64,000 bases of DNA from Patescibacteria group bacterium (GTDB taxonomy: Bacteria; Patescibacteriota; Minisyncoccia; Phycocordibacterales; JAKFXT01). The stretch lies in the NCBI GenBank assembly GCA_038063555.1, contig JBBTUX010000002.1:6806-70805 (forward strand). The letters are read 5' to 3'. The notes under the pieces are model-generated. The model did not search any database. It worked only from the letters and a program-made list of their open reading frames with translations, and was not told the origin of the DNA. Positions 481 to 60,654 of the stretch are shown one piece after another (positions within the stretch are counted from its first letter, which is position 1; each line of letters starts with the position of its first letter). The position numbers and the translations under genes were made by a program.

Positions 481-507
481 TTGCAAGTACAACTTGTCCC
501 GTATAAT
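481..507 (+). promoter_or_regulatory. Putative sigma70-like promoter for the ArsR-like gene (TTGCAA, then about 15 nt, then TATAAT at 502-507)
   Basis: A perfect TATAAT hexamer sits at 502-507, with TTGCAA 15 nt upstream. The -10 box overlaps the left arm of palindrome P1, which is an operator-like arrangement. Confidence 0.3.
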
Positions 508-543
508 CTATACCACTATTCGCTAGAATAGTGGTATAGATTA
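504..543. repeat. Palindrome P1 of family A: 18-bp arms TAATCTATACCACTATTC / GAATAGTGGTATAGATTA around the loop GCTA
   Basis: I read it directly as an inverted repeat. It shares the core ATCTATAC[C/T]ACTATTC with P2 (853-890) and P3 (4154-4197). Confidence 0.9.
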
Positions 544-566
544 CGGAGTGTGGTAATATTGAGGTT

Positions 567-833
567 ATGAATTCCAGAAAGACCGAGGTGATTACAAAAG
601 GCTTGGCTAGCCACAGACGGTTGTATATAGTTGAAATGTTATTTAAAAAACCAGAAATGTCTGTTGAAGAAATTGCCAAAGTGGCCAAGATAAGTCACAA
701 AAATGCTTCTGGCCATATTAACAAACTGACTTCTTCTGGTTTGATAATGAAACGGCATGATGGTAATTTTGTTCGTCATAAACTGACAAAACGTGGCGAA
801 ACCATTCTCAAATTCTTGAGAATATTGGAATAG
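567..833 (+). CDS. ArsR/SmtB-like winged-helix HTH transcriptional regulator (88 aa)
   Basis: At 88 aa it has an ...ASHRRLYIVEML... recognition-helix region typical of the ArsR family. It is about 50% identical to the paralog at 60192-60461. Its 3' end encodes FLRILE* over a short palindrome (ATTCTCAA/TTGAGAAT at 804-823). Confidence 0.6.
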   Translation: MNSRKTEVITKGLASHRRLYIVEMLFKKPEMSVEEIAKVAKISHKNASGHINKLTSSGLIMKRHDGNFVRHKLTKRGETILKFLRILE

Positions 834-852
834 TGTAAAAAATAGAAGCGTA

Positions 853-890
853 CATCTATACTACTATTCGCGCGAATAGTAGTATAGATG
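853..890. repeat. Palindrome P2 of family A: a perfect 38-bp palindrome CATCTATACTACTATTCG|CGAATAGTAGTATAGATG
   Basis: I read it directly. It lies between the ArsR-like gene and the DGR target gene. Confidence 0.9.
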
Positions 891-973
891 TTACAGAAAA
901 ATGGTAAGAAAAAAGTAAGAATAAGAAAAAAAAGCTGATGGCAGACCACTGTCTTTTTTGCTAAAGTAAGGTC

Positions 974-2989
974 ATGGAAAAGTTTGAAGGTGATTTTCTT
1001 AAGGATAAATACTGGGGCAATAAAGAATTCCGGGAAGCCGCGGGGGTTTCGGCTCGCCGCACGAAAAAGCGTGAAAGCGAGAATGTGCCCAATACGCCAC
1101 CTGAGCGCATTGAGAACTACCTCGATCGATTTACCGAGATAACCGATCGGGAAGACCCTGAAAAACGCGAGCGCGGCATTTCTGCCATTGAGCGACTCGT
1201 GGAGAAGAAATACATCATCAAGGCAGAAAATATAACCGATGAATATATAAAAAATGTATTGCTCGGCAATGAAGCCGAACTTCTCGGATACGAGCGGGAA
1301 GATGTAAAAGACGAGCAGATACGAAAAACCGTGCTTGATTCGCTGGAGAATAAAATTCATTCGCCTCTCTCTACATATAGAGTGCCGATTGAACTTCGAG
1401 AATCATTGGAGAATATGATTATTACCGACCAGAAAGGGAGGATGAAGCAGTGGCTCGATTACCTTACAGGAGAAGAAGCGCGTCATGCTCCGGTTGCACT
1501 TCGTTATTGGGCATTCGCCGAAATGCTTAAACAGGGAGATTACGATCCTGTTAGCGGAGAATACAACAAACGCACTAACGCAACAGTTGCAATTTTCCCC
1601 GAACTCGACCAACAAGCCCTTGCCCTTGTTTTTGATGAAGTGGAACGACGAAGAACCGGCAAAACATCTGCACTTTCTACGGGCGATGATGCGCGACAGG
1701 CCGAATTGCGAGATCTGCTTCAACATGAGAATTTTGGTAAGCTCTATGCGTTCATGCAGGAGCATGTTCGTTCGCTAAAATTACCGACCGAGCGTCTTGT
1801 CATCACCGAGGGAGGATGGAAACTCTTTTCAAAAGATTCTTCACCATCTGATTTAACCGCTCCGCTCCAAGGGTATCAGACTAAATGGTGCATTGCGGGA
1901 GAAGGCCACGCTACCAGCTATCTGGAAACTGGTGATGTCTGGATTTATTTTTCAAAAGATGTGGACGGACAAAATACTATCCCTCGCGCGTGCGTTATAG
2001 ATAACAAAGAACACGGTATTACCGAAGTCCGAGGCATCATTTTCAATGAAGAAGTTAAACAACATCTTGACGACTACATCACGCCGGTAGTTGACGCAAA
2101 ACTCAAAGATATGGAGGGTGGTGAAAAATGGGCGGACAAAATGGATGATATGAAGAAGTTGCGTGAACTGCACTTCAAATATTTGCAAAAGGAACCATTG
2201 AATAAAAACGATTTAACTTTCTTGTATGAGATTGACCGACCAATACAGGAATCCGGATATGGTAAAGACCCGAGAATAGAAGAGCTGAAAAAAGGCAGAA
2301 ACAGACAAGAGGACATCAAAACAATGTGTGATTGTAAGGAAGAGTTTATTGCCACAGATTTTATTGATATAAAAGAAATCACACAAGTGTTTTGTGAAGA
2401 TACAGGAGATAAAATAACTTTCTTTGATTTTCGGGAAGGACAAAACAAAGAGAAACTTCTGCCGCTTATGGAATTGGCGAAAAGAATAAAAGAAACTGGA
2501 AGGGGAGCACGACCAGACATGTCATTTGAGGGAGGAATAGTAAATATAAATGTGCCAAAAGAAAAACTAAAGGACTTGCCGACGGCCATTAAGTCATTCG
2601 AAGAGGCAGACAATAATTCACCCTCGTCTATTTGGGAAGAATTAAAAAAAATGCCATTTGCTACATTGGAGCAATCTTCTTTGGAACTTATTGTTCTTTC
2701 TTACAATAAAGACGTAGAAACAAGAAAATCATCAGAAAAAATAGTAGAAGATATGGATAAGCTAGGACTTAGACCAGCTACCTTTGGGGAATTAATTACT
2801 CTTGGCATAATTAAGCCCGTTTTTAACAAGAAAAACGAATATATTGTTGCTCTCGGCACAAAAGCTACTCTGGACGGCGGTGTTCGTGTCTCGGTCTTGG
2901 TCTGGTACGGTGATAAGCGTCTTCTGGATGGCGACGGGTGGACGATCGAGTGGGGCGAGCTTAGCCGTTTCCTTTGTCTCCGCAAATAG
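974..2989 (+). CDS. DGR target protein (671 aa) with a C-terminal variable region
   Basis: This long ORF lies immediately upstream of the TR and RT. Its last roughly 40 codons (VR 2868-2985) align without gaps to the TR, with conserved Trp and Gly scaffold codons (LDGGVRVSVLVWYGDKRLLDGDGWTIEWGELSRFLCLRK versus TR-frame LDGDIHVPNLDWNDGERSLNRNIWDNEWDDRNRFVCLRN). The N-terminal half is GC-richer than the C-terminal half. I recognised no other domain. Confidence 0.6.
   Translation: MEKFEGDFLKDKYWGNKEFREAAGVSARRTKKRESENVPNTPPERIENYLDRFTEITDREDPEKRERGISAIERLVEKKYIIKAENITDEYIKNVLLGNEAELLGYEREDVKDEQIRKTVLDSLENKIHSPLSTYRVPIELRESLENMIITDQKGRMKQWLDYLTGEEARHAPVALRYWAFAEMLKQGDYDPVSGEYNKRTNATVAIFPELDQQALALVFDEVERRRTGKTSALSTGDDARQAELRDLLQHENFGKLYAFMQEHVRSLKLPTERLVITEGGWKLFSKDSSPSDLTAPLQGYQTKWCIAGEGHATSYLETGDVWIYFSKDVDGQNTIPRACVIDNKEHGITEVRGIIFNEEVKQHLDDYITPVVDAKLKDMEGGEKWADKMDDMKKLRELHFKYLQKEPLNKNDLTFLYEIDRPIQESGYGKDPRIEELKKGRNRQEDIKTMCDCKEEFIATDFIDIKEITQVFCEDTGDKITFFDFREGQNKEKLLPLMELAKRIKETGRGARPDMSFEGGIVNINVPKEKLKDLPTAIKSFEEADNNSPSSIWEELKKMPFATLEQSSLELIVLSYNKDVETRKSSEKIVEDMDKLGLRPATFGELITLGIIKPVFNKKNEYIVALGTKATLDGGVRVSVLVWYGDKRLLDGDGWTIEWGELSRFLCLRK
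2868..2985 (+). repeat. DGR variable region (VR), 118 bp, at the 3' end of the target gene
   Basis: It aligns without gaps to 3288-3405, with identical 12-nt 5' and 8-nt 3' ends (CTCTGGACGGCG ... CTCCGCAA). TR AAY codons correspond to diversified VR codons (V, Y, D, D, I, S, K). About 42 of 118 positions mismatch, and only about half of those sit at TR adenines. Confidence 0.55.
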
Positions 2990-3287
2990 ATTTTTGAATT
3001 TTTGTCACTTTGCTTATGATTTAGATATTTTGATTTTGTTCTTTTCTTTTTTTAAATTAAAATAATAATGAGAGTAGATAATGAGTGCGCGGATAAATTC
3101 TTCGCAACATCGAAATCAGTAGAACACAGATCGGAATTTTTGCGTGATAAGTGCGTGAAAAGTGTGTCTGTGTTTTCTTTAAAAAAAGAAATCTACTTGG
3201 CGCATATACGTCTGGCATTATGATGCCGACTTAAATACAATGTATGGTTGCGACTATATGTGGTGGATTGCATGTGTATATGCGAAA

Positions 3288-3405
3288 CTCTGGACGGCGA
3301 TATTCATGTCCCGAACTTGGATTGGAATGACGGTGAGCGTAGTTTGAACAGGAACATCTGGGACAATGAGTGGGATGATAGGAATCGATTTGTTTGCCTC
3401 CGCAA
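3288..3405 (+). repeat. DGR template region (TR), 118 bp, adenine/AAY-rich, non-coding
   Basis: In the VR reading frame it carries 7 Asn (AAC/AAT) codons in about 39 codons. It lies 85 nt upstream of the RT. The ORF-track ORF 3248-3463 covers it and is probably not a real protein. Confidence 0.55.
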
Positions 3406-3469
3406 TTTAATTTCTTTCTCCGCCAGATATTTATTTTGGTGGAGTTTTCTTTTGACTCTCTAATTCCAA

Positions 3470-4183
3470 TTGTTTAATCAATTGGTTATGCCAGTAATTA
3501 GCAAAGCAAGTGTTAGAGACAGAGTTGTTCATAGGTTGGTTTATAACGCTCTTTATTATTACTTTGACTATAAATTTATTTATGATTCTTATAGTTGTCG
3601 AATTGGAAAAGGTACACACAAGGCACAGGCGAGATTCAGAAGTTTTGTTAATAAGGTTAGCAAAAATTATACGGCCTCCTGTTTTGTTTTAAAATTTGAT
3701 ATCAAAAAATGTTTTGAGAGTATTGATAAAAATATACTCAAAAATATACTTTCTTTTCATATTGAGGATAAAGGACTAAAAAGAATTATATTTTCTATAA
3801 TTGATAGTTTTGGAACGGGAATTCCTCTCGGGAATTTGACATCACAATTATTCTTGAATATTTATCTCCACGAGCTTGATTGGTATGTAAAACAATTTTG
3901 GGGGTGTAAATATTACCTGCGATATGCTGACGATATAATCATTATCTCCACCAACAAAGAGAAATTAGAAGAACTATATGCAAATTTAGAAATTTTTCTT
4001 AAAAACAAATTGAACCTCACTACTCACAAGAAAATCATTATTAGTATTTACTCGGGAATTGATATTTTGGGGTTGGTGTTTTTCCCGCAGTATCAACGCT
4101 TGCGACGCAGTACCGAAAGAAGAATAGAAAAAAGAAATAGCAAAATATTTAAACATCATCTATACCACTATTCCATGGAATAG
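3470..4183 (+). CDS. DGR-type reverse transcriptase (237 aa; apparently shortened at both the N- and C-terminus)
   Basis: It contains the RT motifs VRDRVVH (motif 1), CRIGKGTHKA (motif 2), FDIKKCFESID, the DGR-diagnostic GIPLGNLTSQLF motif and YADDIII (motif 5). Alignment from memory to Bordetella phage Brt starts at Brt motif 1 (the first roughly 55 aa are missing) and stops about 40 aa short. The last codons lie inside palindrome P3. Confidence 0.8.
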   Translation: MFNQLVMPVISKASVRDRVVHRLVYNALYYYFDYKFIYDSYSCRIGKGTHKAQARFRSFVNKVSKNYTASCFVLKFDIKKCFESIDKNILKNILSFHIEDKGLKRIIFSIIDSFGTGIPLGNLTSQLFLNIYLHELDWYVKQFWGCKYYLRYADDIIIISTNKEKLEELYANLEIFLKNKLNLTTHKKIIISIYSGIDILGLVFFPQYQRLRRSTERRIEKRNSKIFKHHLYHYSME

Positions 4184-4197
4184 TGGTATAGATGATG
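4154..4197. repeat. Palindrome P3 of family A: a perfect 44-bp palindrome CATCATCTATACCACTATTCCA|TGGAATAGTGGTATAGATGATG
   Basis: I read it directly. It overlaps the RT stop codon (TAG at 4181-4183) and shares its core with P1 and P2. It also creates the spurious mirror ORFs ending ...LYHYSME. Confidence 0.9.
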
Positions 4198-4266
4198 TTG
4201 ACGGTAACACTGGCAATGCAATATTGTAGCCTCTCTTAACAAAAGCTTAACAAAGGATATTTTTTT

Positions 4267-4971
4267 GTGTATGGTGTTTTCATGGCTACGTTTTATATAG
4301 TGGCAACGCCGATTGGGAATCTTGAGGACATGACTTTCCGGGCGATTCGTATTTTGAAGGAGGTGGATATTATATTGTGCGAAGATACACGGGTAACACA
4401 AAAATTACTTAAACATTATGAAATTAACGATAAACAGCTTTCTACATATAACGCACAAAAAAGCTCGGTTAGTTTCAGTAAAATTAGCAATTGGATAAAA
4501 GAAGGGAAAAATTTGGCGTTAGTGACTGACGCGGGAACTCCAGGAATATCAGACCCGGGGAGTGAACTTGTGGAAAAATTAAAGAGTGAGTTTAGTAGTG
4601 AAGAGCTCAAAATTGAGCCAATACCGGGGGCTTCGGCGATTGTTGCGGCTATGTCCGCCGCAGGTATCCCTGCGGCGGAATGGACCTTTTTGGGATTTTT
4701 ACCGCACAAAAAGGGCAGGGAGACCTTGTTTAAGGAAATTGCTAAAGGAGAGAGAACTTTTGTTTTTTATGAATCCCCACACAGGATTATGAAAACTTTG
4801 GAAAAGTTGGCACAAGTAATACTTGATAATCGCAAAGTTGCGGTGTGTAAAGAATTGACCAAAATTCACGAAGAATTTGTAAGGGGGAGCGCAAAGGAAA
4901 TATTTGCTCACTTTAGAAAAAACCCCGACCGTGTCCGTGGGGAATTTGTGGTCATAGTTTCTAAATGTTAA
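4267..4971 (+). CDS. rsmI: 16S rRNA (cytidine1402-2'-O)-methyltransferase
   Basis: It has a tetrapyrrole-methylase fold N-terminus, FYIVATPIGNLEDMTFRAIRILKEVDIILCEDTR, and GISDPG. The true start is probably the M of MATFYIV at 4282. Confidence 0.75.
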   Translation: MYGVFMATFYIVATPIGNLEDMTFRAIRILKEVDIILCEDTRVTQKLLKHYEINDKQLSTYNAQKSSVSFSKISNWIKEGKNLALVTDAGTPGISDPGSELVEKLKSEFSSEELKIEPIPGASAIVAAMSAAGIPAAEWTFLGFLPHKKGRETLFKEIAKGERTFVFYESPHRIMKTLEKLAQVILDNRKVAVCKELTKIHEEFVRGSAKEIFAHFRKNPDRVRGEFVVIVSKC

Positions 4972-6494: not shown

Positions 6495-8357
6495 TTGAAT
6501 AGATTATGGCACCTTTGGACCCCAAAAGAGTTTTACATTACAAATCAGAATATATTTTATTGTGAGGTCAATTTTAAACCCATGAATTCAAACGAATTTT
6601 CTAAAAACTCTAACGGGGCAAGTGAAAATCGTATAACTTATTTTGCCCATACTGACGCTAGAAACAAGCAGGTTCCTTTTGGAATTAAAGCTAAAGACAG
6701 AACTCGTCATGTATATGTCATAGGCAAAACGGGAATGGGAAAATCCACCCTCCTTGAAAATATGGCGATTCAAGATATTCAAAACGGGGAGGGATTGGCT
6801 TTTATTGACCCTCATGGCAAAACGGCTGAATATTTGTTGGATTTTGTGCCAGAGCACAGAATAAAAGATGTTTTATACTTTGCTCCTTTTGATTTGGAAA
6901 ATCCAATTGCTTTTAACGTAATGGAAGATGTGGGCGCAGATAAAAGACATCTTGTTGTTGCCGGATTAATGAGTGCGTTTGAAAAGATTTGGATTGACGC
7001 CTGGAGCGCCCGTATGGCTTATATTTTGCAAAACACATTACACGCTCTTTTGGAATATCCGGGAGCAACGCTTCTTGGGGTAAACAAAATGTTGACTGAT
7101 AAGGAGTATAGAAAAAAAGTTGTTGATAATGTTAGTGACCCAACAGTTAAATCTTTTTGGACGGACGAATTTGCAAAATACACAGATAGATACACAGCCG
7201 ATGCAACGCCCGCCATTCAAAATAAGGTGGGGCAGTTTACCAGCAACCCTCTTATCAGAAATATTATAGGTCAACCTCATTCTTCTTTTGATATTAGAAA
7301 GATAATGGACGAAAAGAAGATTTTAATAATTAATCTTTCCAAAGGACTTGTCGGTGAAAATAACGCCAATCTTTTGGGTAGTATGCTTGTAACCAAGATA
7401 TATCTTGCGGCTATGTCTCGCGCTGATGTGAGTGAAAAATCAATGATTAAACTTCCAAATTTTTATCTTCATGTAGATGAATTTCAATCTTTTGCTAATA
7501 AAAGTTTTGCCGACATTCTTTCGGAAGCTCGTAAATACAAATTAAATTTGACCATTGCTCATCAATATATAGAACAAATGGAAGAAGAGGTGAGAGATGC
7601 TGTTTTTGGAAATGTCGGCACAACAATAGCTTTTCGAGTCGGGGCATTTGACGCTGAAGTTTTGGAAAAAGAATTTGCCCCCGTTTTTATGGCGGAGGAT
7701 TTAGTTAATTTGGGATTTGCTCAAGTGTATTTGAAGTTAATGATAGATGGAGTTGGTTCCCAACCATTTTCTGCTAAAACCATGGGGCCAATCACAAAAA
7801 CAACTTCTTCTTATAAGAGATTAATACTAGCATCTTCTAGAGAACAATTTAGTTTTCCGCGCTCTCAAGTTGAGAGTGTTATTTCTGAACAACTTATTTC
7901 CAAAGTGGAAACAAGAACCGAAAAAAAACCAAGAGAAGAAATGTTCTCTGGGGTTCAGTCCGAGTTACAAAAAAGAGATGAAAAACGTAAGGGGGTAGAA
8001 AATAGAGAAAAATCAACCAGTGTAAATAAACCAGAAGGACATTTAAGTGAACTTCGACAAACTTTGGCTGGAGTAATGGGAGCAGATTTGTCAAAATCAG
8101 AGAATAAATCTTCTCCTAAACTGGAAGTAAAATCACAACCGCAATCCCATAAACCAAAAGAAAATCCTAGGCGAGAAGTAAAAAATGAAGGAATGTCAGA
8201 TCATAAAAAAGCTCTAGCAGAAGTTTTGGCTAAACTTCAAGAGAAAGAAAAAAAATCTGTTTCAGAAGAAAAAGAAGCAGAGGAATCATTTAACAAGAAA
8301 GAAATTTCGGAAAAGGAATTACGAGATATGCTCCATGTTGATAATGAGGGAAATTAA
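6495..8357 (+). CDS. VirD4/TraD-family (T4SS coupling-protein-like) P-loop ATPase with a K/E-rich C-terminal tail
   Basis: It has Walker A GKTGMGKST, the segment FIDPHGK, a Walker B-like LHVDEFQSF and ...TIAHQY.... No N-terminal TM helices are present. The C-terminal roughly 150 aa are low-complexity K/E-rich sequence. The likely start is M at 6582. Confidence 0.5.
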   Translation: MNRLWHLWTPKEFYITNQNIFYCEVNFKPMNSNEFSKNSNGASENRITYFAHTDARNKQVPFGIKAKDRTRHVYVIGKTGMGKSTLLENMAIQDIQNGEGLAFIDPHGKTAEYLLDFVPEHRIKDVLYFAPFDLENPIAFNVMEDVGADKRHLVVAGLMSAFEKIWIDAWSARMAYILQNTLHALLEYPGATLLGVNKMLTDKEYRKKVVDNVSDPTVKSFWTDEFAKYTDRYTADATPAIQNKVGQFTSNPLIRNIIGQPHSSFDIRKIMDEKKILIINLSKGLVGENNANLLGSMLVTKIYLAAMSRADVSEKSMIKLPNFYLHVDEFQSFANKSFADILSEARKYKLNLTIAHQYIEQMEEEVRDAVFGNVGTTIAFRVGAFDAEVLEKEFAPVFMAEDLVNLGFAQVYLKLMIDGVGSQPFSAKTMGPITKTTSSYKRLILASSREQFSFPRSQVESVISEQLISKVETRTEKKPREEMFSGVQSELQKRDEKRKGVENREKSTSVNKPEGHLSELRQTLAGVMGADLSKSENKSSPKLEVKSQPQSHKPKENPRREVKNEGMSDHKKALAEVLAKLQEKEKKSVSEEKEAEESFNKKEISEKELRDMLHVDNEGN

Positions 8358-9729
8358 TTATTTTTTGATTTTTGTTTTTCTTTTTTTACCAGTTTTTGCT
8401 TTTGCCGATATTAAAATTACCGAAATAATGTATAACGCTTTAGGTAGTGGCAGTTCCGAGTTGCAAGATTTTGTAGAGGTAAAAAACATTGGTTCTTTAT
8501 CAGTGGATTTGTCCTCTTTCAAATTTTCTGATGGTTCGGACCATTCTATTAATTCATATGAAACTTCATTGACTATTGTCCCACCGCAAGAAGTGGTGAT
8601 TTTGGTAAGTTCTCCAAGTAAATTTTTGACTGAATGGCCTCAGTTTAGTGGGAAGGTGCTTGATAGTTCTGTTTCTTTTGTAACAACGGACACAGCTGTT
8701 ATTAAAGATGAAAGTGGGGCAATTATTGATTCGGTTTCCTTTTCTTCTGACATGGGAGCCAATAATGATGGCAATTCCTTACAGCTGGTAAACGGACAGT
8801 GGATTGCTACGATCCCTACTCCCGGCCAATCAAACGCTACGGGTGAATTATCGGGATCTCAAAATTTATCAAATACAAATAATTCCAGCCCAGAAAATCA
8901 ATCACAAACCCAAACGACAGGAACGCAATTATCACAAATTTATGAGCAACAAATATATGCAAACGCAGGTGTAGATAAAACGATTTTAGTAGGAGCAGAA
9001 CTTTTGTTAAATGGTTCGGCTTTAGGAATCAAAAAAGAACCTTTAACGAATGCCCGCTATTTATGGAATTTTGGTGACGGATCTTCTAAAGAAGGGAAAA
9101 AGGTAAGTCATACTTACTCATTTCCGGGAATCTATACCGTAAGTTTAGACGTTTCTTCCGGCGATTATTCACAGGGAGATGTAATGATTGTTACTGCGGT
9201 GGATGCAAAAATAAAAATAGGGGAGATCATTAATGGAATTGATGGATACATAACAGTGTCAAACGAAGGGAATAGTGATATTGATATTTCCAGATTTATT
9301 CTCCAAAGCTCTACAAGTACCTTTGTTTTTCCTGTAGGAACAATTATAAAAGCAAAAAATAGTATTCGTTTTCCGAACGCTAATACAAAATTGTCTGGAA
9401 TCTTCCCAGTCTCTTTACTTTATCCAAACATGACCCCTGTTAAAGCCATCAGAGAAACTGTAGTTCCGGAAACCTCTCTCGTGTCGCAAAAGAGCCCAAT
9501 TCTATCATCAAAAAAAGAAAGTTTAACACCAATTCAAGAAAATTCTGTATCAGAAGAAAATGATAAGAAAGATTTTTTGAGTGCAGTTGGAGAAAGTGGG
9601 CAGGAAAATAATTTACTGTGGATTTCAGCCGTTCTCGCTTTGGTGGGTATTTCTATTGCTGGAGTGATATATTCAAGGAGAGAAAGAAATGAAGCAGATC
9701 TATATGAAATTACAGAAGTGGACGAGTGA
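8335..9729 (+). CDS. Secreted, membrane-anchored surface protein with lamin-tail (LTD)-like and PKD domains
   Basis: It has a signal peptide (MREINYFLIFVFLFLPVFAFA) and LTD-like segments (ITEIMYNALGSG...FVEVKNIGSLSVDLSSFKFSD; IKIGEIINGIDGYITVSNEGNSDIDISRF). There is a PKD-like segment YLWNFGDGSSKEGKKVSHTYSFPGIYTVSLDVS, an S/T/N/Q-rich linker and a C-terminal TM anchor. Confidence 0.55.
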   Translation: MLIMREINYFLIFVFLFLPVFAFADIKITEIMYNALGSGSSELQDFVEVKNIGSLSVDLSSFKFSDGSDHSINSYETSLTIVPPQEVVILVSSPSKFLTEWPQFSGKVLDSSVSFVTTDTAVIKDESGAIIDSVSFSSDMGANNDGNSLQLVNGQWIATIPTPGQSNATGELSGSQNLSNTNNSSPENQSQTQTTGTQLSQIYEQQIYANAGVDKTILVGAELLLNGSALGIKKEPLTNARYLWNFGDGSSKEGKKVSHTYSFPGIYTVSLDVSSGDYSQGDVMIVTAVDAKIKIGEIINGIDGYITVSNEGNSDIDISRFILQSSTSTFVFPVGTIIKAKNSIRFPNANTKLSGIFPVSLLYPNMTPVKAIRETVVPETSLVSQKSPILSSKKESLTPIQENSVSEENDKKDFLSAVGESGQENNLLWISAVLALVGISIAGVIYSRRERNEADLYEITEVDE

Positions 9730-59511: not shown

Positions 59512-60128
59512 AAAGAATAAATGGAAAAGTTGCCGATAAAGTTGTTGAACTTGGTAAATTGGTTTTACAATTTGCAAGAGTAAATAGAATCACTCTTTAT
59601 GAGGATGGTGTTACACCAGAATCTGACACAGACCATACCGTAATGCTTTCACTTATTGCTTGTGCTGTCGCATCAGAATATAAAAAAGATTTAGATTTGG
59701 GATTAGTTGCTCAATTTGCCCTAGTTCATGATTTTGTAGAGGTTTACACGGGAGACATTCCTAATATTCATGGAAAAATGATTGATAAAAGACACTTGAA
59801 GAAAAAGGAACTTGAACAAAAAGCCTTAAAAAGATTAGAAAAAAACTTCAAAAAAGTTTTACCTTGGCTTTCAAAGACCATAAAAAAGTATGAAAAAATG
59901 GATACTAAAGAAGCCCGTTTTGTTAAGATTTTAGATAAAGCGATGCCTAAAATAACACATTCGCTTAATAAAATGAAAGCTTTAAAAATACGTGGTTTTG
60001 ACAAGAAAATGGCAGAAGATACTTTAAGAGACCAAATAATATCCATAGAAAAAAGTTATGGAAAAGACCAAAAAGAAGCGATAGACATAATGAAATTATT
60101 AGCAAAAAAATCTTTATCCGCTTTTTAA
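59508..60128 (+). CDS. HD-domain phosphohydrolase (YfbR-like 5'-deoxynucleotidase family)
   Basis: It has ...SDTDHTVMLSLIA... and ...LVHDFVEVYTGDIP..., which are the HD motifs. Its 4-nt overlap with the upstream gene makes an ATGA junction. Confidence 0.55.
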   Translation: MKRINGKVADKVVELGKLVLQFARVNRITLYEDGVTPESDTDHTVMLSLIACAVASEYKKDLDLGLVAQFALVHDFVEVYTGDIPNIHGKMIDKRHLKKKELEQKALKRLEKNFKKVLPWLSKTIKKYEKMDTKEARFVKILDKAMPKITHSLNKMKALKIRGFDKKMAEDTLRDQIISIEKSYGKDQKEAIDIMKLLAKKSLSAF

Positions 60129-60173
60129 ATTCTCTATTCCAATGTTCTCAAGAACATTGGAATAGAGAATTTT
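60127..60173. repeat. Palindrome P4 of family B: 22-bp arms AAATTCTCTATTCCAATGTTCT / AGAACATTGGAATAGAGAATTT with a 2-nt spacer
   Basis: I read it directly. It overlaps the HD-gene stop and lies 19 nt upstream of the second ArsR-like gene. Confidence 0.9.
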
Positions 60174-60191
60174 TAGTGATATTATAGAGTT

Positions 60192-60461
60192 ATGAAAAAC
60201 TTTAGGAAACTGGAAAGGGTAGTGAAAGGATTTTCCAATCACCGAAGAATTGAAATTTTAGAATTGTTAAAAAGAAAACCGGAACTTTCCGTCGTTGAAA
60301 TTGCTGAAGAGTTGAAAATCAATTTCAAAACAGCTTCCGAGCACATAAGAAGATTGGCCATTGCTGGACTTGTAATCAAACGCTCCGAAGGTCCTGCTGT
60401 CCGTCACAAACTCACCCCCACCGGAATCTCTATTCTAATGTTCTTAAGAACATTAGAATAG
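60192..60461 (+). CDS. ArsR/SmtB-like winged-helix HTH transcriptional regulator, a paralog of 567-833
   Basis: At 89 aa it carries ...SNHRRIEILELL... It is about 50% identical to the first copy. Its 3' end encodes FLRTLE* inside palindrome P5. Confidence 0.6.
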   Translation: MKNFRKLERVVKGFSNHRRIEILELLKRKPELSVVEIAEELKINFKTASEHIRRLAIAGLVIKRSEGPAVRHKLTPTGISILMFLRTLE

Positions 60462-60465
60462 AGAT
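60426..60465. repeat. Palindrome P5 of family B: a perfect 40-bp palindrome ATCTCTATTCTAATGTTCTT|AAGAACATTAGAATAGAGAT
   Basis: I read it directly. It covers the last 11 codons and the stop of the ArsR-like gene and shares its core with P4. Confidence 0.9.
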
Positions 60466-60654
60466 TTAGGAAAATAAATAATAATACTTATAAATACTTG
60501 CACGATAAACAAGAGATATGAGAAACTAGACGGAACCTGTCCCGTTAGAAGTCGCGGACACCAAAACATAATTTTATTAAATCAGTTATATCAATTATCA
60601 AAAATCATTGTAGTAAATGCGGAGTATTAATTTCCGTGTCCTACTTCTAATGGG

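Follow-up and report, generated by a model that had tools for sequence, protein, structure and literature searches.

The three perfect palindromes P1, P2 and P3 near the start of the window (the whole 64 kb stretch of DNA that was analysed) are likely to be sites of the small winged-helix protein ArsR-A, with P1 as a putative autoregulatory site and with the neighbouring DGR associated only incidentally. This reading is based on comparative genomics of about 13 loci, and copy number was taken from 64 kb of genome.

Palindromes and the arsR-A gene

The features of the arsR-A locus are as follows.
504..543, no strand: P1, perfect palindrome 18+4+18, TAATCTATACCACTATTC-GCTA-GAATAGTGGTATAGATTA
551..559, + strand: extended -10-like motif TGGTAATAT, 7 nt before the arsR-A ATG (upstream alignment anchored on the ATG)
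567..833, + strand: arsR-A, encoding an 88-aa ArsR/HlyU-like winged-helix protein with a group A recognition helix
852..891, no strand: P2, perfect palindrome 20+20, centre GCGC, T variant at half-site position 9
4152..4199, no strand: P3, perfect palindrome 24+24, with the RT stop codon (4181-4183) inside

All three palindromes described in an earlier note are present and perfect. The limits given there are correct for P1 (504-543) and 1-2 nt short on each side for P2 and P3. P2 lies, as described, between arsR-A and the DGR target gene, beginning 18 nt past the arsR-A stop codon (831-833) and ending 83 nt before the target ATG (974), and P3 overlaps the RT stop codon. The centre of P1 is located 43.5 nt before the arsR-A ATG, that of P2 102 nt 5' of the target ATG and about 100 bp upstream of the conserved -10 of the target, and that of P3 106.5 nt before the rsmI ATG. 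The absence of a trailing T-tract was confirmed on the + strand for all three by a terminator scan, which flags P3 on the - strand only, where no gene ends.

The common pattern of the three sites is ATCTATACYACTATTC-N4-inverted, with three exact matches of the full dyad in the window versus 0 expected. The half-site occurs six times, as both arms of the three sites, a count reached in 0/100 shuffles of the window; elsewhere in the 64 kb there are two weak matches only (2-3 mismatches), and no further copy of this type was found in the remaining 60 kb. The 36-nt core of P3 is identical in sites of other genomes (L014, L010, L035, L036), and an imperfect variant of P2 is present in two metagenome contigs.

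P1 had been placed over the -10 box of the arsR-A promoter. A TATAAT at 502-507 does overlap it, but its spacer to TTGCAA is only 15 nt, and the element conserved among homologues is instead TGGTAATAT at 551-559, found there at equal distance from the ATG. This motif is probably a leaderless promoter of arsR-A. Relative to it, P1 spans about -63 to -24, that is, the -35 region and upstream DNA.

The predicted fold of the ArsR-A protein is of the ArsR/HlyU type. The protein, which contains no cysteine, matches Pfam HTH_5 (3.4e-7) and reaches 49.9 bits with NCBIfam HTH_metalloreg, under the curated cut-off of 55. Among PDB profiles, HlyU (3jth, 4.4e-11) is matched better than AspA (1.1e-4). A Foldseek search with the AF2 model (pLDDT 88) returned AspA (4rs8, TM 0.73-0.76) as best match, followed by a set of ArsR, HlyU and MarR structures.

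A second regulator with its own palindromes

A paralogue with a palindrome pair, missed in the earlier inventory, is located at 60127-60466.
60127..60172, no strand: Q1, perfect palindrome 22+2+22 of the B type (CTCTATTCCAATGTTC)
60177-60185: extended -10 TGATATTAT, between Q1 and arsR-B
60192..60461, + strand: arsR-B, encoding an 89-aa paralogue with the group B recognition helix INFKTASEHIRRL
60425..60466, no strand: Q2, perfect palindrome 21+21, within the final 12 codons and stop of arsR-B (..GISILMFLRTLE*)

The two proteins are 53% identical, and the centre of Q1 lies 42.5 nt before the arsR-B ATG. The presence of Q1-arsR-B-Q2 in the same window therefore makes palindrome-regulator-palindrome a recurring layout of the family and not a feature of the DGR.

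Conservation of the site and regulator pairing

A palindrome of this architecture is found 20-60 nt upstream of the ATG in all 13 arsR homologues with readable upstream DNA (arsR-A and arsR-B of the window, L014, L020, L023, L025, L035, L041, L045, L018, L022, L026 and L015). In the aligned loci, the half-site sequence covaries with the recognition helix: group A proteins (N-A/T-S-G/D-H-I-N/G) pair with ATCTATACYACTATTC, group B proteins (T-A-S-E-H-I-R-R-L) with (A/C)TCTATTCYARTRTTC, and the window holds both types, each beside its own paralogue. The arms are conserved between genomes despite 55-70% protein identity and non-alignable flanks. Among 21 sites there are 15 invariant alignment columns, and each half-site comprises two blocks ~10 bp apart. 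Co-occurrence, helix covariation and the cognate paralogue pair make the palindromes the best candidates for binding sites of the adjacent winged-helix protein, as the earlier note had proposed; its suggestion of autoregulation at P1 likewise stands as a candidate, with an equivalent palindrome at all homologous loci.

The layout P-arsR-P is seen at both loci of the window and in L025 and L041; L018 and L022 retain degenerate remnants of it. Sites equivalent to P2 on the 3' side are those of L025 and L041 and Q2; the spacing from 5' to 3' site is 296-348 bp in four loci. In L025, the gene downstream of the 3' site is fba. Seven of the eight non-promoter copies (P2, P3, Q2, L025d, L041a, L031b and L036) overlap a stop codon or lie at most 18 nt from one. 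The L010/L032 and L031b copies are located between convergent genes, and the L036 copy 11 nt past a stop codon. In L031, two sites flank a MazG-like gene, with no arsR on the 14 kb contig.

A pattern scan of 185,579 species genomes returned 2 other loci, and in a metagenome collection 7 contigs were found to carry 8 true sites, L010 and L020 being two re-finds among them. Even across these two very large collections the core is limited to a few loci, in contrast to the dozens of scattered positions expected of a generic repeat. Pairing of regulator and site appears, from these sequences, to occur in several other CPR bacteria, and among the matches examined the arsR family is confined to contigs of the CPR/Patescibacteria type. 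Public assemblies frequently break at the palindromes.

The DGR cassette and the rsmI neighbourhood

Between P2 and the end of rsmI, the following features were annotated.
940..959, + strand: terminator-like hairpin GGCAGACCACTGTC, weak, then T6, between P2 and the target promoter
959..967, + strand: extended -10-like TGCTAAAGT, 6 nt before the target ATG
974..2989, + strand: DGR target gene, 671 aa, no Pfam family
about 2867-2985: VR, in the target gene
3287..3405, + strand: TR (template repeat)
3470..4183, + strand: RT relic, 237 aa
4247-4275: rsmI candidate promoter TTAACA-17-TATGGT
4282..4971, + strand: rsmI (TP_methylase)

The target is a member of a large family in CPR in which the N-terminal ~70% is conserved and the C-terminus variable. 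BLAST homology at the DNA level to L027, a homologue without DGR, covers 955-2271 and includes the shared TTTTTGCTAAAGTAAGGTCATGG. Judged by its sequence, the DGR of the window is a decayed relic, because avd is missing, the RT has lost its N-terminus and VR and TR have drifted at non-A positions. No avd gene was found between TR and RT; about 41 N-terminal residues are missing relative to the RT of L030, and the relic aligns only with residues 75-290 of Bordetella bRT. Of 123 aligned positions, TR and VR mismatch at 45, about 42 of them within the repeat proper. TR has A at only 20 of the 45 and another base at 25, compared with 19 A-type mismatches and 1 non-A mismatch in the intact DGR of L030, used as control.

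In relatives, rsmI typically follows arsR directly, often with overlapping or nearly abutting stop and start codons, in the order murC-P-arsR-rsmI without a DGR (L015-L020, L022, L023, L026, L045). The dedicated control of the DGR considered in the earlier note is not supported from either side: eight regulator loci of this order lack a DGR, and neither regulator nor palindrome was found at three loci with target homologues, one of them an intact DGR. In L014, where the neighbourhood is different, an arsR-A homologue with its palindrome precedes a remote member of the target family (~30% identical).

Proposed function of the sites

A dimer of the ArsR-A family would bind P1, P2 and P3 as 16-4-16 inverted repeats. 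P1 would be the conserved autoregulatory operator of the family over the -35 region and upstream DNA. P2 may represent the family's recurrent second site, placed where the regulator gene ends and, in the case of arsR-B, embedded in the last 12 codons. P1 and P2 could work together as paired operators, through DNA looping or through bound protein that serves as a roadblock or insulator where the transcription unit ends. The decayed DGR cassette would then sit between arsR and rsmI, which are adjacent in most relatives. P3 occupies the distal junction, 5' of rsmI; it may tie rsmI to the regulator, or it may be no more than a duplicated site.

Some observations speak against this explanation. Several copies cannot be promoter operators (L010/L032, L031b, L036), P2 and P3 are located ~100 bp 5' of the next start codon, which is no position for classical repression, and the L031 pair surrounds a MazG-like gene with arsR absent from 14 kb.

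Symmetry of the sites and alternative explanations

The dyad symmetry covaries over the full length of the sites including the centre, by Watson-Crick changes only. At half-site position 9, 13 of the 21 sites have C:G, 8 have T:A and none is unpaired; G-T combinations at dyad positions are almost absent. The symmetry score was attained in 0/500 shuffles, with 79.6% paired versus 33-45% in slid controls, and 17-18 of the 21 sites have a self-complementary centre of 4 nt. A dimeric repressor does not need perfect symmetry over 36-50 bp together with a self-complementary centre and variable flanks; such symmetry hints at an extra constraint, for instance extrusion of a cruciform, self-correction from a template or a role in recombination.

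The palindromes could be att-like, possibly cruciform-forming sites of recombination or insertion that bound exchangeable cassettes, the DGR having entered at a pre-existing arsR-rsmI palindrome and left one copy per junction. We consider this reading, related to the mobile DGR module of the earlier note, improbable. It would account for the position of P2 and P3, one at each end of a segment that the arsR-rsmI operon of relatives does not have, for the P-X-P arrangement around the MazG-like gene and arsR itself, and for central tetranucleotides that tend to match within a genome (L031 TATA/TATA, L041 AATT/AATT, L025 CATA/CATT); a cleavage-and-rejoining or hairpin mechanism would also be expected to yield perfect palindromes that have no spacer and whose variable flanks are symmetric. 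However, a scan of 47 of the window's 54 ORFs of at least 120 aa, several of them without a family match, turned up no integrase, transposase or HUH enzyme. Other DGR and target loci lack the sites, and Q2 lies within a conserved coding region. Since the centres and flanks of P1, P2 and P3 are not the same, a recombination event, if there was one, was not recent.

Slightly less probable still is a role of ArsR-A as dedicated transcription factor of the DGR, acting at P2 (target) and P3 (RT end). The position of these sites, the L014 arrangement and a 2024 preprint describing the regulation of mutagenic retrohoming as still awaiting discovery are in its favour. Against it stand the regulator loci without DGR, the target and DGR loci without regulator and palindrome, and the degeneracy of the cassette, all of which leave the regulation at P2 and P3 proposed in the earlier note unsupported. 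Furthermore, P2 is placed next to the arsR stop codon and does not reach the conserved target promoter, which starts at 955, and the same 3' site also occurs in L025, where fba is the next gene, and within the arsR-B coding sequence.

A function as RNA stem-loops, namely terminators without U-tract, processing sites or 3' stabilisers, is about as doubtful, if not a little more so. It agrees with the location at stop codons and with the very stable predicted hairpins (-15 to -21 kcal/mol as DNA, z about -10), but the Watson-Crick covariation over the whole length points to recognition of double-stranded DNA rather than to RNA hairpins. The central 4 nt are self-complementary although unable to pair in a hairpin, G-U intermediates are nearly absent, and arm sequence is conserved across genomes beyond what pairing alone requires. 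In addition, the U-tract is absent, no Rfam match was obtained and the upstream copies would be untranscribed given the conserved promoter; with only five such palindromes among about 55 genes, they are no general terminator.

Least plausible are REP/BIME-like selfish palindromes or centromere-like, nucleoid-organising sites of an AspA-like protein, as the extragenic position near gene ends, the structural match to the archaeal plasmid centromere-binding AspA and the assembly breaks are outweighed by very low copy number, tight linkage to one regulator gene, the lack of a ParA, ParB or RAYT gene nearby and a GC skew that is monotonic across the window and thus indicates no origin region.

Comparison with known systems

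As in REP/BIME elements, palindromes lie just past stop codons, but here they are few rather than hundreds, perfect rather than imperfect and tied to a specific regulator paralogue, with one copy inside coding sequence. The attC sites of integrons are not perfect palindromes: they carry extrahelical bases and a conserved R box, and they require the IntI integrase. The palindromes resemble them in flanking single genes or small modules (arsR, the MazG-like gene, the DGR), whereas neither attC-type features nor IntI were seen here. Inverted repeats are also associated with DGRs as cis elements (IMH, hairpin/cruciform 3' of VR); known DGR hairpins reportedly lie directly after VR, while P2 and P3 are outside the cassette and absent from the homologous intact DGR of L030.

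AspA, encoded on Sulfolobus pNOB8, is said to be a small wHTH centromere-binding protein acting on a palindrome upstream of its own gene. ArsR-A shares this palindrome position and finds in AspA its best Foldseek match, but HlyU is nearer by sequence (4.4e-11 vs 1.1e-4), and arsR-A is chromosomal, without ParA/ParB partners, in a conserved murC-rsmI position. Auxiliary operators are known inside lacZ (lac O2) and galE (gal OI). The palindromes likewise include a second copy a few hundred bp downstream, at times in coding sequence, although here this copy lies beside or across the stop codon of the gene for the regulator itself, and oligomerisation and looping are putative.

The ArsR/SmtB family includes the autorepressors SmtB, CzrA and CadC, with 12-2-12 inverted-repeat operators, and HlyU as a non-metal member. 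ArsR-A corresponds to it in its winged-helix dimer fold of the ~90-100 aa class, in HlyU as closest solved sequence relative, and in a palindrome at its own promoter whose half-sites have two blocks about one helical turn apart. It differs in having no cysteine or recognisable metal site, in a score under the NCBIfam cut-off (49.9 vs 55 bits), in 16-4-16 sites that are perfectly symmetric over 36-50 bp, in a second site that adjoins the end of the regulator gene or lies within its last codons, and in belonging to a family confined, among the matches examined, to contigs of the CPR/Patescibacteria type.

Long palindromes at the arsR genes

The earlier note had described three palindromes with a shared core (P1, P2 and P3) around the gene of an 88-aa ArsR/HlyU-like protein (arsR-A) and a retroelement (DGR). 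All three are present, perfect and non-random, and their positions relative to the genes agree with that description. A second pair (Q1 and Q2) is located at the paralogous gene arsR-B.

Palindromes, arsR genes and DGR (window positions)
504-543: P1, perfect palindrome TAATCTATACCACTATTC-GCTA-GAATAGTGGTATAGATTA
567-833: arsR-A, 88 aa
852-891: P2, perfect palindrome, left half ACATCTATACTACTATTCGC, right half GCGAATAGTAGTATAGATGT
974-2989: DGR target gene, intact ORF of 671 aa
3287-3405: TR of the DGR
3470-4183: RT of the DGR
4152-4199: P3, perfect palindrome, left half AACATCATCTATACCACTATTCCA, right half TGGAATAGTGGTATAGATGATGTT
60127-60172: Q1, perfect palindrome upstream of arsR-B
60192-60461: arsR-B, 89 aa, group B paralogue, 53% identical to arsR-A
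60425-60466: Q2, perfect palindrome formed by the last 12 codons and the stop of arsR-B, ..GISILMFLRTLE*

The 16-nt half-site ATCTATACYACTATTC occurs six times in the window, namely in both arms of P1, P2 and P3, a count reached by none of 100 shuffles. The dyad pattern has three matches versus zero expected, all within 3.7 kb of the 64 kb. The other 60 kb hold only two weak half-site matches (2-3 mismatches); a match at 9270 (2 mismatches) was set aside as a lone half-site without a dyad partner. At a minimum arm length of 11 nt, the window has no perfect palindromes besides P1, P2, P3, Q1, Q2 and one 11-bp-arm inverted repeat in rsmI. The five named sites all have arms of at least 18 nt and are all attached to arsR-A or arsR-B. 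A direct repeat at 892-918 and 4111-4137 (74%, A-rich) was discarded as low complexity and is unfit as a target duplication because it lies on the wrong side of P3.

As the earlier note had stated, P1, P2 and P3 have no trailing T-tract on the + strand, and the terminator scan found no intrinsic terminator (GC-rich stem and U-tract) at any of them on this strand. The one hit is P3 read on the - strand, and no gene ends there. An Rfam scan of the whole 64 kb returned no family at gathering thresholds, tRNAs included.

The window is DNA of CPR/Patescibacteria: NCBI assigns the regulator to a "Patescibacteria group bacterium" MAG, and contigs identical to the window DNA come from Hainich groundwater metagenomes. 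Two independent Hainich contigs (L006 and L007) carry P2 with GAATAG instead of GTATAG in one arm. The perfection of the sites is thus not absolute, and an imperfect P2 allele circulates in the population.

The ArsR/HlyU-like proteins and their predicted sites

By fold and sequence signature, the arsR-A product is a winged-helix protein of the ArsR/HlyU type. It matches Pfam HTH_5 above the cut-off (3.4e-7, 30.5 bits versus 22), and its family profile matches HlyU (3jth, 4.4e-11) over residues 5-86. The AF2 model (pLDDT 88) consists of helices at 3-27, 33-40, 44-56 and 75-87, with a beta-wing at 60-73 before the last one; Foldseek ranks AspA (4rs8) first, ahead of ArsR, HlyU and MarR structures. 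The curated NCBIfam cut-off for ArsR/SmtB metalloregulators (NF033788, 55 bits) is missed by both arsR-A (49.9) and arsR-B (52.8). A metal- or thiol-sensing site with Cys pairs of the alpha3N/alpha5 type is absent from arsR-A, there being no cysteine in its 88 residues, conservation being limited to His16, His50 and His71. A word-indexed search recovered 15 clusters of homologues, an exhaustive profile search 254 clusters at E <= 1e-10, mostly of 88-95 aa.

The ArsR/HlyU-like protein encoded next to the palindromes probably binds them as its cognate sites. An inverted repeat of 16-4-16 architecture is found 20-60 nt before the ATG in 13/13 loci with readable upstream DNA, and its sequence follows that of the recognition helix. 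In group A (window P1, L014, L020, L023, L025, L035, L041, L045), a helix ..N-A/T-S-G/D-H-I-N/G-K/R-L is paired with the half-site ATCTATACYACTATTC. In group B (L018, L022, L026; degenerate site in L015), the helix INFKTASEHIRRL is paired with (A/C)TCTATTCYARTRTTC. In an alignment of 21 sites, 15 columns are invariant and fall, within each half-site, into the blocks TCTAT.C and TTC, spaced by about 10 bp, a pattern that marks sequence-specific recognition by a protein. The window genome thus appears to encode two non-overlapping regulator/site pairs. The upstream palindrome in every homologue examined, together with the covariation of the recognition helix, points to autoregulation via an operator at the own promoter, and P1 would be the autoregulatory operator of arsR-A. 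This part of the operator idea in the earlier note gains comparative support; its reading of P2 and P3 as operators of the DGR is not supported.

Q2 makes up the C-terminal coding end of arsR-B, so that protein sequence and predicted binding site constrain each other. A change in the Leu codon CTA is balanced in the opposite arm by a synonymous one, TTA/TTG. The C-terminal helix of arsR-B is encoded by a copy of the protein's presumed binding site. At the 3' end of arsR-A (..ILKFLRILE*), a degenerate B-type dyad, CCATTCTCAAATTC-TTGA-GAATATTGGAATAG, was seen by eye at 803-835 with 10/14 arm positions complementary. Its right arm is a B half-site with two mismatches (820-835), and no dyad at 803-835 passed the 14/18 scan. 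The equivalent coding stretch is an exact B-type half-site in L026 and L014.

Position of the sites relative to promoters and gene ends

When upstream regions were aligned on the ATG, an extended -10-like motif, TG-n-TA(A/T/G)TAT, was found conserved 6-7 nt before the start (window 551-559, L023, L025, L026, L014, L035, L041, L045, and arsR-B at 60177-60185). A motif placed likewise precedes the DGR target gene (TGCTAAAGT at 959-967; kept in its DGR-less homologue L027), and the candidate promoters of rsmI (motif at 4270-4275) and fba conform as well. A TGnTAnnnT motif at this distance leaves no room for a Shine-Dalgarno sequence, which suggests that these CPR genes (arsR homologues, target, rsmI and fba) have leaderless transcripts. 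On the inferred promoter geometry, site centres lie at about -43.5 for P1 and -42.5 for Q1, between -45 and -58 in L014, L026 and L020, and at -20 in L018 and L022. The earlier note had placed P1 on the -10 box of arsR-A. A TATAAT does exist at 502-507, but it is conserved only in L035, and on that geometry P1 overlaps the -35 region instead.

Besides the promoter copies, eight sites are found at gene ends.

Sites at gene ends
P2: 18 nt past the arsR-A stop
P3: includes the RT stop codon
Q2: includes the arsR-B stop codon
L025d: 3 nt past an arsR stop; fba starts 63 nt further on
L041a: directly adjoins an arsR stop
L031b: overlaps the stop codon that ends a MazG-like gene; the genes on either side converge
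L036: follows an RNase R-like gene after 11 nt
L010/L032: in the gap of a convergent gene pair, 48 nt past one stop

A palindrome - arsR - palindrome layout is present at four loci, 296-348 bp centre to centre. The distance from the centre to the following start codon is 102.5 nt for P2 and 106.5 nt for P3, which places both sites off the promoters of these genes. Given this distance and the recurrent sites 3' of arsR, P2 is read as the 3' partner of the arsR unit, a site recurring in the family, and not as a DGR operator. A pair of the P1/P2 type could loop the DNA, block read-through as a protein roadblock, or both.

Symmetry of the sites

In the 21-site alignment, 79.6% of cells are paired between a column and its mirror column, versus 67.9% in shuffles and 33-45% in slid controls. 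The covariation score is 0.343 versus 0.146 and was reached by 0/500 shuffles. Position 9 of the half-site is C:G in 13 sites, T:A in 8 and mixed in none, and the variable flanks stay complementary as well (first flank position A:T in 7 sites, T:A in 7, C:G in 3). In 17-18 of the 21 sites the four central nucleotides are self-complementary, although they are unable to pair in a hairpin, and G-T combinations are almost missing from mirror columns. Self-complementary centres, paired flanks and the near-absence of G-T favour a constraint on duplex DNA symmetry over one on an RNA stem-loop. The symmetry exceeds what a simple repressor requires; it might stem from a symmetric oligomer in contact with the full site, or from correction of one arm by the other via a cruciform or template switching.

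The centre CATG dominates across genomes. Two sites of the same genome have identical or nearly identical central tetranucleotides (L031 TATA/TATA, L041 AATT/AATT, L025 CATA/CATT), which hints at duplication or conversion between copies.

Gene neighbourhood and the DGR between P2 and P3

The order murC - palindrome - arsR - rsmI (TP_methylase) is found in L015-L019, L020, L022, L023, L026 and L045; further downstream there is usually a small ORF and then a TrwB/VirD4-like gene. The arsR and rsmI genes of these relatives are often contiguous or overlapping, and none of the loci contains a DGR. The window has the same flanks (murC 63-470, rsmI from 4282, TrwB-like gene 6495-8357), so that the P2-P3 segment of ~3.3 kb is read as an insertion into the arsR-rsmI unit. 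P3 would then be the third copy, placed where the decayed DGR insertion ends, just upstream of rsmI, which in relatives is fused to the arsR unit.

At 6495-9729 of the window and in L015-L026, a TrwB/VirD4-like coupling-protein gene is followed by an LTD/PKD-domain gene, syntenic with murC-arsR-rsmI across several CPR lineages. Positions 9774-53408 are occupied by ~44 kb of polysaccharide/glycan synthesis genes (many GT4 and GT2 transferases, epimerases, Asn synthase, a KDO-8-P-synthase-like protein, CMP-sugar synthetase, Wzy_C, flippase). Two G+C-richer islands (0.45-0.47) are located at 28-32 kb and 44-48 kb.

The DGR itself (2867-4183) is a relic, as indicated by VR/TR drift, the missing avd and the shortened RT. 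The VR of an active DGR differs from TR at TR adenines only. In a 123-position ungapped alignment, the window VR and TR differ at 45 positions, 20 at TR adenines and 25 elsewhere (~22 within the repeat proper), many of the non-A mismatches falling on third codon positions. The intact DGR of L030, which has a target of the same family, shows 23 mismatches: 19 at TR adenines, one non-A within the repeat and three beyond its end. An active DGR also has a full-length RT and Avd. L030 encodes avd on the - strand and an RT of 276 aa. By tblastn, neither avd nor an Avd remnant was found in 2900-3500 of the window. The window RT, preceded immediately by an in-frame stop, is 237 aa long; it has ~41 N-terminal residues fewer than that of L030 and aligns to bRT over residues 75-290 only. 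Roughly 500-600 nt, which in L030 hold avd and the RT 5' end, appear to be missing from the window. No further VR copies of this TR were found in the window.

Dedicated transcription-factor control of the DGR, as proposed in the earlier note, is not supported, in view of arsR loci without a DGR, target homologues without arsR or sites, and the position of P2 off the target promoter. The target family is large (>430 matches), and its members at L027 (pgk), L028 (murC) and L030 (greA, with DGR) have no arsR or P-type sites. Palindromes and regulator do not, therefore, always accompany the DGR: the homologous intact DGR of L030 has no P-type site and no such regulator. A counter-observation is L014 (6658-8000, Saccharibacteria MAG), where an arsR-A homologue and palindrome are followed by a distant (~30% identical) target-family member, downstream of secY-adk-map. 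The tempting claim of a first transcription factor dedicated to a DGR is removed as unsupported, and the relic state of the window DGR matters for counts of active DGRs in CPR genomes.

Mobile elements and repeats

The palindromes could also mark the boundaries of exchangeable CPR gene cassettes, with a perfect palindrome left at each junction; we consider this highly improbable. The DGR, a MazG-like gene and the regulator itself would be examples of modules inserted between housekeeping genes by a site-specific or hairpin/cruciform mechanism, with the winged-helix protein as site-recognition or architectural factor. A role in recombination is made conceivable by three observations: the insertion has P2 at one junction and P3 at the other, a 228-aa MazG-like gene in L031 (10292-11063) has an A-type palindrome on each side, and copies in one genome tend to have the central tetranucleotide in common. 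The neighbours of the MazG-like gene are a trxB-like gene and, in convergent orientation, an HhH-GPD glycosylase gene; arsR does not occur on this 14-kb contig. However, surveys with Pfam among others found no integrase, transposase or HUH enzyme among 47 of the 54 window ORFs of at least 120 aa (non-overlapping, all those of at least 155 aa included; several gave no family match at all). Moreover, Q2 lies inside a conserved coding sequence, and P1, P2 and P3 differ in centre and flanks.

In one genome per species (185,579 species), the dyad scan returned six loci, two of them real, L014 and L010 (the latter in Saccharibacteria MAGs); the other four were unrelated short hairpins with T-runs or other chance dyads. 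Among metagenomes it returned 12 contigs, seven of them real with eight true sites, L010 and L020 being re-found among the seven. The core is thus not scattered at dozens of loci in the 64 kb, the species genomes or the metagenomes, a distribution that the earlier note would have taken as REP-like. The low copy number (3 in 64 kb; few loci in both collections) speaks against REP/BIME-like repeats; in MAGs it may be under-counted because the sites are assembly breakpoints. The public contigs L002, L004, L036 and L045 end in a site or no more than a few tens of nt from one; such breaks are expected at a repeated palindrome longer than the assembler's k-mer. Viral contigs yielded unrelated hairpins only and hence no phage link, and no replication origin is indicated near the sites, GC skew being monotonic.

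Comparison with known systems

Integron attC sites are imperfect, have R and L boxes and lie near a tyrosine integrase, whereas the P sites are perfect and lack an R box, with no recombinase family in the scanned window ORFs. The known target-recognition hairpin of DGRs is located directly 3' of the VR/IMH, whereas P2 lies 2 kb upstream and P3 1.2 kb downstream of the VR. No description of this regulator/palindrome pair, nor of transcription-factor control of DGRs, was found in the literature.

To our knowledge, transcription control in CPR/Patescibacteria, which cannot be grown alone, is almost unexplored. The conserved 88-aa protein at the conserved murC-arsR-rsmI position offers a concrete, testable regulator/site pair, whose predicted operator is unusually long and perfectly symmetric, with a second copy at the 3' end of its own gene. 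Judged from sequence, the kind of system is probably a known one, an autoregulated winged-helix regulator. Unusual within it are perfect dyads of 36-50 bp, a second site adjoining the stop codon, which in arsR-B is the gene's own 3' coding sequence, and symmetric covariation over the full site length.
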